DNA from: Candidatus Gastranaerophilales bacterium
Lineage (GTDB): Bacteria; Cyanobacteriota; Vampirovibrionia; Gastranaerophilales; JAILCC01
Direction of reading: 5' to 3'
DNA length: 64,000 nucleotides
NCBI GenBank assembly: GCA_028696075.1
Contig: JAQVHS010000005.1
Location: 6,656-70,655, forward strand
This document shows positions 9,677 to 59,069 of the stretch, one piece after another. The notes under the pieces are model-generated. The model saw only the letters and a list, made by a program, of their open reading frames with translations, did no database searches and was not told where the DNA came from. The first letter of the stretch is position 1, and each line of letters begins with the position of its first letter. A program made the position numbers and the translations under genes.

Positions 9677-9890
9677 AGAACAGCGCAAGCAGTGTGTGAA
9701 GCCTGAAAAGGCTTGCTAAAGAGCAAGGCTTTGGAAGGCGAAACCGTTCTACACCGCCGTTGTGAATGAATTTGCGCAAGCAAATGAATGAACGAAGCAA
9801 TCTATATTGAAACAAATTGCGACAGCAAATTTGCTTTCAATGATTGCACAGGCGGAGAACAGCGCAAGCAGTGTGTGAAGCCTGAAAAGG
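9677..9890. repeat. GC-rich structured island bounded by an exact 35-bp direct repeat
   Basis: AGAACAGCGCAAGCAGTGTGTGAAGCCTGAAAAGG occurs at 9677-9711 and 9856-9890. The interior holds several hairpins, including ATTTGC-GCAA-GCAAAT. Confidence 0.8.
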
Positions 9891-10942
9891 CAAGACGGGT
9901 GATTGGTGGAATAGTGTTAATAAACAGACTCGGGCAGAATTTTTACAATGCTCCTTCATTTAAAGCTATAGTTGTGAAGCCTCCTATAATTACTGTTGTA
10001 GGTCCTACGGAAGAAAAAAGAAAAAGGACAACCTGCCATTTTGACTTTAAAAAAATACCCCATATGCCTTGTGCATGCTGCGGGAAAGAAGTACTTACGT
10101 TCAAAGAAATTGACGGGTTTCAAAATACACTGAAAGATGCGACAGGTACTGAGTTAAGACATCATTTAAGAAAAAGATGGAACAATTACAAAGCAACCGA
10201 AAAGAAAGTAGTAAGAAAAATAATAAAGACTTCTTATGATTATGAAGATAAGAATTTGCAAGAACTATTACAAGTAACGTTTGATAATTCACGCAAAGAA
10301 TTAGTTGAAACACAAAAAAACATAATTATTAAACTAAAAAACATATCCAATAATTTAGAAGGTCCAATCAAGCCGAAGTTAAAACATTTTTTTGATAAAG
10401 CAATAGAAATCGTTGAGAGTGAAGACATAGCATTTAAAAGAAAGACTTTTTTGCAAAGTTTAGCGATGAAAGCAGCAGAAGACAAAGACCCTCGTAATAT
10501 AAAAGCTTTAACATACATATTAGCCAAAGCCGAAACAATCCCGACATCTGCCGAAGACGTTAATGCTTTTATTGTTAAATATTCCAGACGCTCACCCAAA
10601 GAAATTGCTTACAGACTTCTTTCAAGGAATGCGGCTACGGCTGAACATATCAAAGCTTTTACACGAAACGGCTTAAACGATAAATCAAATTATCTGCTTG
10701 AATGCAATAAGTGTAACGAAGCAAGGGGCAGTATTCGATTTAAAGACTGGGTAAAACAAACCCCCCAGTTTATAAATAATGTACAAAAGTTCATAGAAGA
10801 AGCAATAGCGGTAATTAAATCAGGTAAAATGAACGGTTATGAAAAGTACCCGTTAGAAGTAAAAGAAACGTTGAAACGGGAATCCGGCGGAATTATAGAC
10901 ATAGACCTGGGAGACTATGAAAAATTTTTAAGCGCAGGATGA
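9788..10942 (+). CDS. Zn-ribbon / helical / HNH nuclease-domain protein, paralog 1 (start uncertain; GTG at 9899 plausible)
   Basis: Aligns with the ORFs at 10986 and 58008. N-terminal CACCG ribbon. C-terminal HNH core TAEHIKAF..NDKSNYLLECNKCNEARG. The first 37 codons lie inside the GC-rich repeat island. Confidence 0.7.
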   Translation: MNEAIYIETNCDSKFAFNDCTGGEQRKQCVKPEKARRVIGGIVLINRLGQNFYNAPSFKAIVVKPPIITVVGPTEEKRKRTTCHFDFKKIPHMPCACCGKEVLTFKEIDGFQNTLKDATGTELRHHLRKRWNNYKATEKKVVRKIIKTSYDYEDKNLQELLQVTFDNSRKELVETQKNIIIKLKNISNNLEGPIKPKLKHFFDKAIEIVESEDIAFKRKTFLQSLAMKAAEDKDPRNIKALTYILAKAETIPTSAEDVNAFIVKYSRRSPKEIAYRLLSRNAATAEHIKAFTRNGLNDKSNYLLECNKCNEARGSIRFKDWVKQTPQFINNVQKFIEEAIAVIKSGKMNGYEKYPLEVKETLKRESGGIIDIDLGDYEKFLSAG

Positions 10943-10985
10943 TAAAAGACTTAATAGTTCAGGCAGCGGTGAAAGGTATAGCATT

Positions 10986-12053
10986 TTGAAAATTAATACT
11001 CTGTTTATCAACAATTTAGCAGCCTATCAAATATTTTTTAGCGGAGATAAAAAATATAAAAATTTTTCTGCGAAAACTTTACCTGCCGAAGATACATATG
11101 TGTCATTAAAGCAAGAGCGCCCACCCTGTACGTTTGAATTAAAAAAAGTAAAAGGCTTATGCTGCGCAGCATGCGGAAATGATGTAGTAACTTATGAAGA
11201 AAGCAAAGACTTCCAAAATCTGATTGAAAACGCAAAGGGAAAACAATTACGCAATATTTTACAAAGCAGACAGCGTTTATATAACGGGAACGAGCAAAAA
11301 ATTGTAACAAAATTACTGGGTTTATCTTCACAGCATGAAGACAAGAATATTCAACAGCTTTTTCAGGTCGCTTTTGAAGATTCAAGAAAAATTCTCGTCC
11401 AAAAACAGATTGAAACTCTTTATAAACTGAAAAGGCTAAGTAAGCTTGTACAAAATCCCGAACATAAAAGAAATCTTAAAGAGTTTATAGACAATATGAT
11501 TGAGCTTGCTCAAAGCAGAGATAAAATCTTTAAAAGAAAAGATGTAATTTATGAATTAAACAAAATTCTAAAAGCAGCAAATTCTGAAGCAGACCGTGCT
11601 GTTTTGGGTACTACAATTAAATACGCAAATTATCTGCCTACATCGTTTAACAATGAGCATGCATTTATAGTTAAATACAGCAGGCGCCGTCCCGGTGAAA
11701 TAGCGTCGATGCTGTTATCACCGCGTATGTCAACAGCCGAACATATCAAGCCTTATTCTTTAGAAGCATCTGACGATAAAAACAACTACATTATAGAGTG
11801 CAAAAAATGCAATCAGGAGCGAGGGAATATATTATTCGCCGATTGGATTAAAATGAACCCTCAAATACTGCAAAATATCAAAAAATTCATAGCCAAAACC
11901 ATAAATGCTATTAAATCCGGCAAGGTTGAAAACTTTGAAGACTACCCGATTAAAGTCAACGAAACATTAAAAGAAAGATCTGCAGGGTTAATCTATTTTT
12001 ACTTAGATGATTATCAAAAATCAATACGACAAGATAAAGAAAAAACAGGTTAG
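10986..12053 (+). CDS. Zn-ribbon / helical / HNH nuclease-domain protein, paralog 2 (TTG start)
   Basis: CAACG ribbon, FKRK and LPTS..AFIVKYSRR motifs. HNH core TAEHIKPY..DDKNNYIIECKKCNQERGN. GAAAGG RBS. Confidence 0.75.
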   Translation: MKINTLFINNLAAYQIFFSGDKKYKNFSAKTLPAEDTYVSLKQERPPCTFELKKVKGLCCAACGNDVVTYEESKDFQNLIENAKGKQLRNILQSRQRLYNGNEQKIVTKLLGLSSQHEDKNIQQLFQVAFEDSRKILVQKQIETLYKLKRLSKLVQNPEHKRNLKEFIDNMIELAQSRDKIFKRKDVIYELNKILKAANSEADRAVLGTTIKYANYLPTSFNNEHAFIVKYSRRRPGEIASMLLSPRMSTAEHIKPYSLEASDDKNNYIIECKKCNQERGNILFADWIKMNPQILQNIKKFIAKTINAIKSGKVENFEDYPIKVNETLKERSAGLIYFYLDDYQKSIRQDKEKTG

Positions 12054-12183
12054 AGTAAAAATAATTACCCCAAGAAAAACATCTGCAGAAAAAAGCTTTT
12101 GTACTATAATAGTGTTTAACAATCGTTGAAAATTTAATACCTGTTTTGATGTCGGTGTGGCACTCTGCCGAACAAAACGATTG

Positions 12184-12320
12184 CGGATTTTTGGCAGGGC
12201 GACGGCTTGCGAAGCAAGACTAGTCCCGTAAGCGCAACTAGCCGAATTGAGCGAAAACTTTTTCATTAGAAAAAAGCTGTAGCGAAATAGAAGGCTATGC
12301 GTACCCAAAAATTCAAGACG
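12184..12320 (-). mobile_element. 137-nt non-coding element with terminal inverted repeats (MITE-like or structured RNA), copy A
   Basis: Absent from the otherwise identical second repeat unit. Inserted in the loop of the CAAAACGAT/ATCGTTTTG hairpin. Ends are CGGATTTTTGG / CCAAAAATTC. Homologous to 43783-43922 in the opposite orientation. Confidence 0.55.
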
Positions 12321-12491
12321 AGTATCGTTTTGTGAGAGGGGTAGACGCGCCGAAAAGCTTTTGTACTATAATAGTGTTTAACAATCGTTGAAAATTTAAT
12401 ACCTGTTTTGATGTCGGTGTGGCACTCTGCCGAACAAAACGATTGAGTATCGTTTTGTGAGAGGGGTAGACGCGCCGAAAAGCTTTTGTAC

Positions 12492-12497
12492 TATAAT
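12492..12497 (+). promoter_or_regulatory. -10 box TATAAT of the tRNA-Leu promoter (also at 12105 and 12367 in the duplicated units)
   Basis: Perfect TATAAT about 40 nt upstream of the tRNA 5' end. The -35 element is not clear. Confidence 0.45.
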
Positions 12498-12537
12498 AGT
12501 GTTTAACAATCGTTGAAAATTTAATACCTGTTTTGAT

Positions 12538-12618
12538 GTCGGTGTGGCGGAATGGTAGACGCGCACGTTTGAGGGGCGTGTGGAGAAATCTGTGGGGGTT
12601 CAAGTCCCCCCACCGACA
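12538..12618 (+). tRNA. tRNA-Leu (anticodon GAG), class II with long variable arm
   Basis: Manual cloverleaf: acceptor GTCGGTG/CACCGAC, D region GGCGGAATGGTAGACGCGC, anticodon stem CACGT/GCGTG with loop TTGAGGG, T arm GGGGG-TTCAAGT-CCCCC, discriminator A. No encoded CCA. Confidence 0.9.
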
Positions 12619-12863
12619 TTTTTAAAATTTGATAAATTAAATTAATCGGACTTAGAACCCCGGTTGTGTCTTTCGACACAACGGTGGTTGCCGATACTCG
12701 GCATCCTAAGGCGTAATGCTCGGTGTCCATCACCTCGCAAACGCCTCAAGACAACTCCCCCCACCGACATTTTTAAAATTTGATAAATTAAATTAATCGG
12801 ACTTAGAACCCCGGTTGTGTCTTTCGACACAACGGTGGTTGCCGATACTCGGCATCCTAAGGC
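12605..12863 (+). repeat. two tandem 108-nt copies of tRNA-Leu 3' end plus a structured downstream module
   Basis: Exact copies at 12605-12712 and 12756-12863 (period 151). Each holds a roughly 65-nt module (12648-12712, 12799-12863) with closing stem CTTAG/CTAAG and hairpins GTTGTGTC-TTTC-GACACAAC and TGCCGA-TAC-TCGGCA. Confidence 0.9.
12718..12769 (+). pseudogene. possible internally deleted tRNA-Leu remnant
   Basis: GCTCGGTGTCC resembles the tRNA 5' end. TCAAG..TCCCCCCACCGACA matches the T-arm/acceptor 3' end. The anticodon region is missing. Confidence 0.3.
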
Positions 12864-12881: not shown

Positions 12882-13460
12882 TTAATCACTCAAATCAATT
12901 CCGTTGTATTTATTTTGAGCTTCAACAATACCGGATTTTAAATACTCTTCAACAGCGTCAACAGACGCGGGAATAACCCTTTGCAAAATCTCCGTTTCCT
13001 GCGCCGTAAATTTGCCCAAAACATAATCTTCCGATTTCATATAATCAGGCTGAGGACCTATACCTATTTTTAAACGGGGAAAATCATTGGAAGATAAATG
13101 CAGTGTCAATGATTTTATACCGTTATGCCCGCCGTCAGAACCTTTGGACTTAAACCTCAACTGCCCTATAGGGATAGAAATATCATCAAAAACAACGAAT
13201 ATATTTTGCGGTTCAATTTTATAAAACTGTGCTATTTTTACAACGGCTTCGCCTGATAAATTCATATATGTAAGCGGTTTGGCTAATATAACTTTTTCAC
13301 CAAAAACATTTCCCGAAGCAATCTCTGCTCTGAATTTAGGTTCGGTTTTAAACGACAAACCATGCCTGCGCACAAACTCATCCGCACAGATAAACCCTGC
13401 GTTATGTCTTGTTTGTTCATATTTAGGACCGAAGTTTCCCAATCCGACAATTAAAAACAT
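12882..13460 (-). CDS. pth: peptidyl-tRNA hydrolase
   Basis: LIVGLGNFGPKYEQTRHNAGF N-terminal signature and GHNGIKS motif. 192 aa. Confidence 0.95.
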   Translation of the reverse strand: MFLIVGLGNFGPKYEQTRHNAGFICADEFVRRHGLSFKTEPKFRAEIASGNVFGEKVILAKPLTYMNLSGEAVVKIAQFYKIEPQNIFVVFDDISIPIGQLRFKSKGSDGGHNGIKSLTLHLSSNDFPRLKIGIGPQPDYMKSEDYVLGKFTAQETEILQRVIPASVDAVEEYLKSGIVEAQNKYNGIDLSD

Positions 13461-43529: not shown

Positions 43530-44017
43530 GCCGCCAAGACAGTATTCCCTACGCTTCGCTCCGGTCAGCCTGGTGTAGATTCGCCGTGTCACAACAGTTA
43601 AACACCATGTTCTAAAATCTTGCAACAATCCGACCCGCGTCAGCGGCTGTCTTGGATTATGCACAACTCATAATGCTTAGTTTCATTTCGACATTTTGCT
43701 ATCGCAAAAGTCTTCATTGCACTGCATTATTCGAACAGACGGCATTCCCTACGCTTCGCTCCGGTCAGCCTACCGCAAATCCGCTGTCTTGGATTTTTGG
43801 GCGTGCATAGCCTGCCATTTCACTACAACATTTTTCTGACAAAAAAGTTTCCGTTCAATTCGGCTATTGCTCTTACGGGTTGGGTTCGGCTTTGCCTCAC
43901 ACGGCACCCTTCCAAAAATCCGCTGTCTTGGATTATGCGGGTCGTCGGAAAACTCATCGCTTCCCTCCGACTTACGGCGTTCCTTCACTATGTTCAGTCA
44001 GCCTACCGCAAATCCGC
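43530..44017. repeat. cluster of degenerate GC-rich repeats
   Basis: ATTCCCTACGCTTCGCTCCGGTCAGCCT x2 (43544, 43744) plus a degenerate third copy (43979). CAGCCTACCGCAAATCCGC x2. CCGCTGTCTTGGATT x3 and its inverted copy CCAAGACAG at 43533. Confidence 0.75.
43783..43922 (+). mobile_element. 140-nt inverted-repeat element, copy B (homolog of 12184-12320)
   Basis: Ends GGATTTTTGG / CCAAAAATCC. Shared core CATAGCC..TTTTTCT..AAAAAG..TCAATTCGGCTA..CTTACGGG. Flanked by a 19-nt direct repeat AAATCCGCTGTCTTGGATT. Confidence 0.55.
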
Positions 44018-58007: not shown

Positions 58008-59069
58008 ATGAAACAAAGACTATCAGCTTTTGATGACTTTCACAAAAAGTATTTTGTGATAAATAACTATTTTCTGTCCTTTAATTCTGACGAGATTTTT
58101 AAATTTGAACCGCAAAATAATACCTGCTCATCAAAAAGCAGGTATTATTTTGAGCTGAAAAAAATAGTTAACCTTCCTTGTCCTTGCTGCGGAAGGATTA
58201 TGACAACCAGAGATGAAATGAACGATTTTGTAGAAAATATTAAAATGGCAAAAGGTCAGACTTTAATTGAGGAGTTAACAAAATACGAGGGGCGCATAAA
58301 AGGTATAGAAAAACAGGTATTAAAAAAAGTTAAAATTAACGCAAAAAAACACCCCGACAAAAATTTAAAAGAGCTTTTTAAACAAATGTACAGAAATTCC
58401 ATACAACAGCTTGAAAATTCACAACAAAAAGTTATAGCTAAAGTTATGAAATTATCCGACGGGCTTGAGGGTCGGACTTATATAACAGTAAAAAAGGATA
58501 TAAAAACCGTAAACACCCTTTTGCAAAAAAGGCGTAACTCACAAGTTTTCAAAAGAAAAACTTTTATTACAAGTTTTTATAAATTGATAATGGAAGAAGA
58601 AAACCCTCGTAATAAAAAAATTCTTGAACTTATTGCCCAAAAAGCCAAAGGTTTGCCGACATCAGGTAACAGCACGGATGCGTTTATTGTTAAGTATCAT
58701 AGACGACGAATTGACGAAATCGCCCAACGATTGCTTGACGCTTCCCTTGCCAGCACAGAACATGTAAATCCCCGCAGCTGCGGCGGGGTAAATGACCCTT
58801 CTAACTATCTTGTACAGTGTAAGTATTGCAACAGCGAAAGAAGTTCGCTAGAGTACAAAGACTGGCTAAAAAAACACCCGGAAATGAAAAGAAATATTCA
58901 GGTTCATATAGATAAAGTGATATCTTTAATTCTTAACGAACAAATAAACGGTTATGATTTTTATCCTTTGGTTATAAAATATACACTTGTAAAAGAGTCA
59001 AAAGGCTTGCTTGATATTAATATTGAAAATATTATAGATTATTTAAAGTATAAGTACCTTGCCGCTTAA
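58008..59069 (+). CDS. Zn-ribbon / helical / HNH nuclease-domain protein, paralog 3
   Basis: CPCCG ribbon, FKRKTF and LPTS..AFIVKYHRR motifs. HNH core STEHVNPRSCGGVNDPSNYLVQCKYCNSERS, the most canonical of the three. Confidence 0.8.
   Translation: MKQRLSAFDDFHKKYFVINNYFLSFNSDEIFKFEPQNNTCSSKSRYYFELKKIVNLPCPCCGRIMTTRDEMNDFVENIKMAKGQTLIEELTKYEGRIKGIEKQVLKKVKINAKKHPDKNLKELFKQMYRNSIQQLENSQQKVIAKVMKLSDGLEGRTYITVKKDIKTVNTLLQKRRNSQVFKRKTFITSFYKLIMEEENPRNKKILELIAQKAKGLPTSGNSTDAFIVKYHRRRIDEIAQRLLDASLASTEHVNPRSCGGVNDPSNYLVQCKYCNSERSSLEYKDWLKKHPEMKRNIQVHIDKVISLILNEQINGYDFYPLVIKYTLVKESKGLLDINIENIIDYLKYKYLAA

Follow-up and report, generated by a model that had tools for sequence, protein, structure and literature searches.

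Several described kinds of mobile or tRNA-associated DNA resemble, each in part, an arrangement that surrounds the tRNA-Leu(GAG) gene in a 64,000-nt stretch of contig JAQVHS010000005.1 (the whole stretch is called the window here), which belongs to the metagenome-assembled genome (MAG) of a Candidatus Gastranaerophilales bacterium. In this arrangement partial copies of the tRNA gene, which we call units, are interrupted by two short non-coding elements, a 41-nt hairpin (B) and a 137-nt element (E137). REP and REPIN sequences (PMC3733652), which are mobilized by RAYT (Y1 HUH) transposases, share with B that they are tiny, non-coding, highly repeated imperfect palindromes of 20-40 nt that form compensatory hairpins and are probably active as single-stranded DNA. 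B differs from them in having no GTAG/CGTC tag at its end and in standing alone, whereas they form inverted doublets. Neither the scanned open reading frames (ORFs) of the window nor the B loci showed a RAYT gene. REPs are not known to target tRNA genes or to be coupled to partial gene duplication. The Melainabacteria are the sister group to the cyanobacterial lineage, and very small mobile repeated elements of 21-27 nt were reportedly found by Elhai et al. in 2008 in Nostoc and other cyanobacteria. These small dispersed repeats are, like B, sharply bounded, hairpin-forming and non-coding, show no obvious target duplication and nest in other repeats; in sequence and size they are unlike B. We know of no report that ties them to tRNA genes, to a polarity or to a coupled duplication.

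The prophages, islands and tycheposons that target tRNA genes regenerate the intact gene, leave a displaced partial copy beside the insert and form arrays at hot spots, as seen here, but they are kilobases long, encode an integrase and duplicate only the 3' part of the gene, whereas the inserts described here measure 41-190 nt, carry no integrase, and are accompanied by duplicated 5' parts with their leader as often as by 3' parts. In our case, too, a partial tRNA direct repeat borders the inserted DNA and an intact gene is present; no recombinase was found nearby, in the window or at the other loci. PATEs, which derive from IS200/IS605 elements, are like B in lacking terminal inverted repeats and target duplications, in being built on hairpins and in showing a strand-specific constraint. 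They have, however, two separate subterminal hairpins and insert 3' of a fixed tetra- or pentanucleotide, whereas on the left of B there is no more than a weak preference for G-G-[C/G], and neither TnpA nor TnpB was seen with B. Archaeal mobile tRNA introns and split tRNA genes likewise provide short structured inserts in the D-arm or T-arm and tRNA gene fragments with their own upstream sequence, but there the interrupted gene is functional and spliced, whereas here the bacterial copy ends about 10 nt after the insert and an intact gene adjoins it. Literature searches on tRNA repeats in Gastranaerophilales, on miniature integration with partial tRNA copies and on small dispersed or mobile repeats returned no description of this architecture, which, given the incomplete coverage, is absence of evidence. 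By analogy, B and the units would be kin to the known miniature mobile repeats and to the partial duplications of tRNA genes.

Results

Interrupted partial copies of tRNA-Leu(GAG) in the window

B and E137 are discrete, dispersed and strongly associated with tRNA genes; the copies that they interrupt are always truncated and always occupy a fixed side, with one gene left intact. In the window, a 71-nt block composed of 60 nt of upstream sequence, including TATAAT, and of tRNA nt 1-11 (GTCGGTGTGGC) occurs three times with 100% identity, and only the third copy (12478-12548) continues into a complete tRNA (Table 1). This had been noticed in a sequence-only reading of the window, and exact repeat searches, ARAGORN and Rfam bear it out. 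Unit 2 (12353-12477, 125 nt) consists of the block, B, GGTAGACGCGC and CG, with tRNA nt 12-16 (GGAAT) missing; its B copy reads ACTCTGCCGAA-CAAAACGATTGAGTATCGTTTTG-TGAGAGG. Unit 1 (12091-12352) has the same layout, except that E137 splits B exactly in the loop (GATT / GAGT). The sequence-only reading had given both units a length of 125 nt and had described 11 tRNA nt, then about 41 nt with a 9-bp hairpin and then D-arm nucleotides; this fits unit 2, but unit 1 is 262 nt long and its hairpin is split by the 137-nt insert. Its view that the units are tRNA 5' parts broken in the D-loop region, neither an ordinary gene duplication nor an anticodon-loop intron, holds for the structure. It had overlooked the dispersal of B, the nesting of E137 within the first unit and, on the 3' side, the duplication of the tRNA end and its trailer. 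Tandem Repeats Finder reports a period of 125 nt with 100% matches at the units, and the repeats in this locus are not attributable to chance.

The segment formed by B copy 2 and the adjoining 11 nt (12423-12475) folds at -18.4 kcal/mol (z = -3.97). Unit 2 as a whole forms a long hairpin (z = -5.35), with pairing between tRNA nt 2-9 and nt 20-27 together with the junction. The TATAAT in each block had been taken for a promoter; the motif is present, but a promoter and terminator scan found no sigma-70-type promoter or terminator on the + strand of the units. When Rfam was searched at the gathering thresholds and at E <= 10, the tRNA alone passed, the best sub-threshold matches being to Flavo-1 (16.4 and 20 bits against a gathering threshold of 42). 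Flavo-1 matches are described in the literature as strand-indifferent. Matches in phage and plasmid searches were confined to the tRNA part.

On the 3' side of the gene, the two copies of a repeat formed by the end of the tRNA and its trailer are separated by a spacer that ends in CCTCAAGAC-AAC (TCAAGAC-AAC) and in this resembles the 3' ends of the E-type elements described below. Comparable junctions of a ...CAAGAC end with a tRNA 3' fragment are present at loci L007, L020, L030, L062 and L187.

B is a dispersed 41-nt element

B copies were collected by scanning JGI/ENA metagenome contigs for the hairpin core, which listed at least 120 contigs, mostly from gut, rumen and digester, and one viral contig. 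The counts given below (141 copies, 116 and 124 contexts) refer to the matches listed and are lower bounds. Across at least 116 distinct contexts the sequence is near-invariant from -11 to +7 around the hairpin core and conservation is flat beyond; because it falls so sharply at these two positions, B is defined as the 41-nt sequence ACTCTGCCGAA-CAAAACGATTRAGTATCGTTTTG-TGAGAGG, which starts with ACTCTG, ends with GAGAGG and has a stem of 9-10 bp. B is thus an element with sharp ends and without target duplication: its flanks hold no direct repeat, and at tRNA sites 4-5 nt of the target are missing instead. Flank preferences are weak (G-G-[C/G] on the left, T/G-A/G after the element). One stem pair covaries (87 G-C, 37 A-T, 1 mismatch). 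At the base of the stem, A-T pairs number 57, G-C pairs 12, G-T pairs 10 and A-C pairs 1, and the asymmetry between G-T and A-C therefore indicates a constraint on the B-sense strand.

Most B copies are distant from tRNAs or nested in other repeats, and the orientation of B relative to flanking ORFs is random. In another MAG (L022), a B copy of 93% identity sits inside a palindrome unrelated to it, and no tRNA is close by. Nesting is reciprocal, with E137 inside B in the window and B inside E137-like elements at L127 and L129. Apart from the copy with E137 in this window, none of the listed copies is a long, cargo-bearing B.

Several other identities for B were considered and rejected. A MITE is ruled out, since B has neither terminal inverted repeats nor a target-site duplication, and so is a tRNA intron, whether group I or spliced, since the units stop after tRNA nt 27 and no tRNA reappears in any of the 124 contexts once B is taken out. 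The idea that B represents the collapsed ends of a larger transposon fails because no copy but the one with E137 bears cargo and because the pairs of E 5' and 3' ends with long interiors were chance matches. B is not in general the apex of long fold-back palindromes, as the complementarity of its flanks did not exceed that of permuted flanks (p = 0.14), and its random orientation to ORFs excludes a sense RNA element of mRNAs.

Two variants of B were observed. In a subfamily the outer frame is different (ACTCCGTTT...GAATGGAGG) and the helix continuous; it occurs at L185 (1468-1594), L123 (12016-12038), L112 and L190, beside duplicated tRNA 3' ends. In a unit upstream of tRNA-Leu(TAG) at L187 (8500-8570), the frame of B (ACTCTGCCGA...GAGAGG) is kept while the inner hairpin is wholly different (GTGAC-TAAA-TGTCAC), which suggests that B is modular. 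A further copy lies on a 48-kb IMG/VR viral contig (L206, 1099-1121), 379 nt from a tRNA-Leu(GAG), in the same context as at L119 and L137; this contig could be a prophage or could be misclassified.

Truncated units with fixed polarity recur at tRNA genes

Of the 141 B copies, 55 are no more than 600 nt away from a tRNA. A 2-Mb genome has about 45 tRNAs, so that only a few per cent would be expected within this distance by chance. An intact tRNA lies to the right, in the orientation of B, for 48 of these 55 copies; the other seven are farther off, three of them sharing one context, and the three that were inspected (L127, L151 and L187) lie inside E-type elements. When B was removed in silico, none of the 124 contexts gave a complete tRNA, and therefore B was never situated in a whole gene among the contexts listed.

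Where B is on the same strand as the tRNA, it lies upstream of it, in the order leader and tRNA nt 1-11 (or 1-19, or 1-26), B, the next 5-15 tRNA nt, a short spacer, leader and intact gene, with 4-5 nt lost at the junction. Such units occur singly or in tandems of two or three with periods of 95-129 nt, at the tRNA genes listed in Table 1. Three-unit arrays of B-split tRNA-like 5' fragments, with periods of 95-115 nt, are also present at L090, L181 and L105, where no intact tRNA was called in the stretch examined. Where B is on the opposite strand, it lies downstream of the tRNA, beside a duplicated 3' fragment (about nt 63 to the end) and its trailer, in a mirror image of the upstream units. 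Mirror-image units were found at Glu, Met, Tyr, Phe, Lys, His and Ser tRNAs (Table 1), and such antisense, downstream copies make up about 40% to half of the tRNA-associated ones. The architecture arose independently at no fewer than nine tRNA species. The hairpin and the partial units recur in related Gastranaerophilales genomes and in gut and rumen metagenome contigs.

Partial copies beside tRNA genes are frequent in the fetched loci: direct ones accompany 49 of 98 tRNAs at a distance of up to 700 nt, in many cases on either side of the gene. At the truncated end, inverted tRNA pieces are also common (for instance at L150, L010 and L185). A set of loci that was fetched through Pth, independently of B, gave the same picture with other mini-elements: at L007, L011, L012, L020, L030, L062 and in the window, tRNA-Lys, -Arg or -Leu genes are followed by elements ending in ...CAAGAC and then by the displaced 3' fragment. 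At L010 a tRNA 5' fragment (nt 1-18) abuts a different, unrelated hairpin insert, and a more distant genome (L014) has a clean, uninterrupted tRNA-Leu(GAG). The duplicated leader at other loci is only 8-30 nt long, the number of units varies from one to three, and some units are degraded (L156, L150). A motif, TTGAMAAYTKAATA, is conserved 0-12 nt upstream of many tRNA 5' ends (for instance at L177 1366-1470, L181 4020-4130, L101 and L165) and usually bounds the duplicated leader on the left; perhaps it is a tRNA promoter or processing signal peculiar to this lineage.

E137 belongs to a second family of hairpin elements

The window holds a second E137-like sequence, 83% identical to E137, on the minus strand (43786-43924), as part of an array of E-type elements (Table 1). 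All elements of the array start with GCGGATTT, finish with AATCCAAGAC(A) and have a 10-bp closing stem, and the closing stems of E-type elements differ between copies by compensatory changes. Homologs of E137 in other genomes and metagenome contigs typically occupy the T-loop of a partial tRNA copy (L187, L122, L011); at L187 and L122, the arrangement is GGAGTTCG / GCGGATTTTGG...AATCCAAGAC / (A/G)AGTCTCTTCATGCCC. The B loop (TTGAGTA) resembles the T-loop (TTCGAGT), and this resemblance plausibly explains why E137 landed in the B loop. B and E137 are discrete and dispersed and nest in each other; they are therefore small DNA elements that are mobile or at least become copied and inserted.

Around the units, short hairpins are ubiquitous whose loops are of the C-GAA-G or GNRA type and whose stems vary freely but compensate; they stand between the unit and tRNA-Leu-TAG at L177, L122, L101, L180, L135 and L187, and inside E elements as well. 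Loops of the d(GCGAAGC) type are unusually stable in single-stranded DNA.

Table 1. Features of the window (positions in nt) and B units beside tRNA genes at other loci (locus identifiers)
Feature	Position or loci	Strand	Remarks
Repeat block copy 1	12091-12161	+	60-nt leader, TATAAT at 12105-12110, tRNA nt 1-11 at 12151-12161
Left half of B copy 1	12162-12182	+	ACTCTGCCGAACAAAACGATT; family border from the 116-context profile
E137, nested 137-nt element in B loop	12183-12319	+	GCGGATTTTTGG...CCAAAAATTCAAGAC; absent from unit 2
Right half of B copy 1	12320-12339	+	GAGTATCGTTTTGTGAGAGG
tRNA nt 17-27 and junction dinucleotide CG	12340-12352	+	GGTAGACGCGC; closes unit 1
Repeat block copy 2	12353-12423	+	Leader and tRNA nt 1-11
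B copy 2, intact, 41 nt	12424-12464	+	Bears the 9-bp hairpin
tRNA nt 17-27 and CG	12465-12477	+	Closes unit 2
Leader of block copy 3	12478-12537	+	Directly 5' of the intact gene
Intact tRNA-Leu(GAG)	12538-12618	+	No encoded CCA; ARAGORN 12537-12619; Rfam tRNA 52.8 bits
Downstream repeat copy 1	12605-12712	+	Last 14 nt of tRNA and 94-nt trailer; 108 nt, equal to 12756-12863
43-nt spacer	12713-12755	+	With the preceding GGC folds as hairpin GGCGT...ACGCC
Downstream repeat copy 2	12756-12863	+	Displaced tRNA 3' fragment TCCCCCCACCGACA (12756-12769) and trailer
Head-to-tail array of 3-4 E-type elements	43532-44017	-	Begins just after a terminator-like hairpin downstream of murJ
Upstream units, Leu-TAG	L177, L122, L101, L180, L135, L187		
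Upstream units, Leu-GAG	This window, L140		
Upstream unit, Leu-CAG	L100		
Upstream units, Leu-TAA	L176		Two units
Upstream units, Lys-CTT	L165, L156		Two units at L165
Upstream units, Pro	L096		Two units
Upstream units, Val	L195, L121		
Upstream units, Met	L150, L179		
Upstream units, Ile	L116, L167, L175, L102		
Mirror-image downstream units	L172		Three units
Mirror-image downstream units	L185, L190		Two units
Mirror-image downstream units	L103, L104, L112, L141, L089, L123, L030		One unit

Gene neighborhood and HNH-like genes

The window is a chromosomal segment with 36% G+C and with the housekeeping genes pth, rpsR, ssb, rpsF, fabH and plsX as neighbors. The tRNA-Leu(GAG) gene sits between an ORF encoding an HNH-like protein (10986-12053, + strand) and pth (12882-13460, - strand). 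This ORF is one of three paralogs, the others being at 9788-10942 and 58008-59069, which are 33-44% identical to each other; one of the two ORFs tested passes the Pfam HNH model, weakly (25.1 bits). The family is small, with 19 matches in a protein search, and its neighborhood is not conserved.

Assembly of the locus

The species was found in a single sample: exact look-ups of Pth and of an HNH-like protein led to two short Logan contigs (SRR22315504), and the nearest Pth among GTDB representatives is 55% identical. These contigs stop at window position 12120, 30 nt into the first 71-nt block, and at about 12834, in the second downstream repeat, as a k = 31 graph does at true repeats. The reads thus place at least two different sequences to the left of the repeat, which does not fix the order and number of the units. 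None of the exact repeats exceeds 112 nt. Since the same architecture is present in many independent assemblies, an artefact is unlikely, though units 1 and 2 could be alleles.

Discussion

On balance, it seems somewhat probable to us that the locus around tRNA-Leu(GAG) is an insertion hot spot of two families of tiny, non-coding hairpin mobile elements, and that the decoy units are non-functional partial 5' copies of the gene that were left behind or created by the insertions. B would have been placed after tRNA nt 11, replacing nt 12-16, to be followed by about 11 tRNA nt and by a restart of the leader and the whole gene, so that one intact tRNA-Leu would be preserved. The first unit was probably doubled by unequal recombination between the identical 71-nt blocks, a process by which arrays might both grow and shrink; the 100% identity of the units would therefore make this expansion recent. 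The E137 family may target hairpin loops that resemble the T-loop (TTCG^AGT), and in unit 1 E137 could later have entered B, the loop of which is similar (TTG^AGT), while a related event on the 3' side may have duplicated the T-arm and acceptor end together with the trailer. The units themselves would presumably have no cellular function.

The association of insert and partial copy could arise by two routes: insertion may be mechanistically coupled to duplication of the outer part of the gene, possibly by template switching on a single-stranded intermediate or at a replication fork, or else only insertions into such duplications might survive. We favor coupling because the length of tRNA retained downstream of B is narrow (5-15 nt), the polarity is constant and partial copies free of an element are absent; the active form would be single-stranded DNA of the B-sense strand. 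Going further, and as a tentative proposal that we regard as possible rather than probable, B and the E-type elements may constitute an undescribed class of protein-less single-strand-hairpin DNAs, mobilized in trans, which copy themselves in during replication or repair while duplicating the outer tRNA gene (leader with 5' part, or 3' part with trailer), sparing the gene and keeping a fixed polarity.

Several points weigh against this account. The surroundings of the B copies yielded no transposase, recombinase or reverse transcriptase, and when the 825 ORFs of the B loci were clustered no protein family was enriched and none was transposase-like. Insertion and duplication in a single step are a presumption, and the scheme does not account for the founding duplication. 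The MAG comes from one sample, and the assembler could have linearized two alleles, with and without E137, into units 1 and 2 in their present order and number. The conserved hairpins, the compensatory spacer hairpins at the Leu-TAG loci L177, L180 and L187, and the asymmetry of G-T over A-C could, besides, reflect selection on RNA.

The tRNA gene might instead serve as the attachment site of miniature integrative elements, in which case the units would be the displaced chromosomal part (attL/attR-like), the incoming circle would bring the replacement tRNA segment and its flank, and the recombinase would act in trans. An intact gene with a short insert and a displaced partial copy is the established layout of tRNA-integrating islands, and whole units stand in tandem arrays at L062, L172 and L181. 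At L007, moreover, the trailer or terminator stem after the displaced 3' fragment differs from that after the intact tRNA, and one fragment has GCGTA instead of GCGCA, which a replacement part from another lineage would explain. We nevertheless hold this reading to be unlikely: there is no integrase in the window or at the loci, the inserted DNA amounts to only 50-190 nt, the 5'-side units would require a leader and promoter carried by the element, local duplication accounts better than a conserved attP for the 60 nt of leader and 94 nt of trailer that are identical here, and B, with its sharp 41-nt borders, occurs in many contexts without a tRNA. Somewhat less likely again is that the units are functional, as small RNAs, such as the expressed tRNA-5'-fragment-like RNAs suggested in the sequence-only reading, or as pre-tRNA leader modules whose tRNA 5' strand and B hairpin serve to process or express the tRNA or act as a decoy. 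The covariation that keeps the hairpin, the tolerance of G-T over A-C on the B-sense strand (10 against 1), the stable fold of unit 2, the compensatory differences among the spacer hairpins of related Leu-TAG loci and the position of B in 5'-side units, on the transcribed strand and upstream of the tRNA, would all agree with such a role. It is hard to reconcile with the random orientation of B to ORFs, with the roughly 40% of tRNA-associated copies that are antisense and downstream of the tRNA, with the many copies that are far from tRNAs or in other repeats, with the variation in unit number and the degradation of some units, and with the failure to detect a + strand promoter or terminator in the units of the window. 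The suggestion in the sequence-only reading that the units amplify a promoter does not generalize either, given how short the duplicated leader is elsewhere.

That strain variants of the locus, one with B and another with B and E137, were concatenated into a false tandem array is very improbable. The origin of the MAG in one sample, the complete identity of the units save for E137, and the independent Logan contigs that end inside the repeats and so do not confirm copy number and order would fit an assembly of this kind, but the junction GGTAGACGCGC-CG-AAAAGC must exist in the reads for any such path, exact repeats of at most 112 nt can be resolved with 150-nt reads, and tandems of two or three units are present in independent assemblies made by different assemblers (L090, L096, L105, L165, L172, L176, L181). 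We give hardly any credence to a further proposal of the sequence-only reading, that the units are scars of repeated cleavage and repair by the neighboring HNH endonuclease-like proteins. Two of these ORFs do lie directly upstream (9788-12053), but homologs in other genomes stand amid unrelated genes with neither tRNA-Leu nor B units, the third paralog of the window is not beside a tRNA, and none of the roughly 120 B-bearing loci listed encodes an HNH homolog. The adjacency of the HNH-like genes and the tRNA in the window is best regarded as coincidence.

The insertion of hairpin mini-elements that spare the gene thus remains the reading that we prefer. If insertion and duplication are coupled, mobile DNA of only 41-140 nt would exploit tRNA genes, which are conserved and safe to find, without killing its host, and the frequent pseudo-fragments beside tRNAs in the fetched Gastranaerophilales genomes and related metagenome contigs would be explained. 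Annotators gain a rule for recognizing tRNA pseudo-fragments, the sharp boundaries of the elements mean that the mobilizing enzyme can be sought by phylogenetic profiling, and the suggestion of an HNH-driven or decoy system is removed for this window. The window clearly exemplifies how hairpin mini-elements behave at tRNA genes, a behavior that is widespread among gut Gastranaerophilales and related metagenome contigs from gut and rumen and is apparently undescribed.

One further observation concerns a tRNA gene of a Gastranaerophilaceae MAG (L050, 2553-2627), in which ARAGORN called a tRNA with the anticodon TTA. This tRNA would read the stop codon UAA, perhaps as a suppressor or as an indication of recoding.

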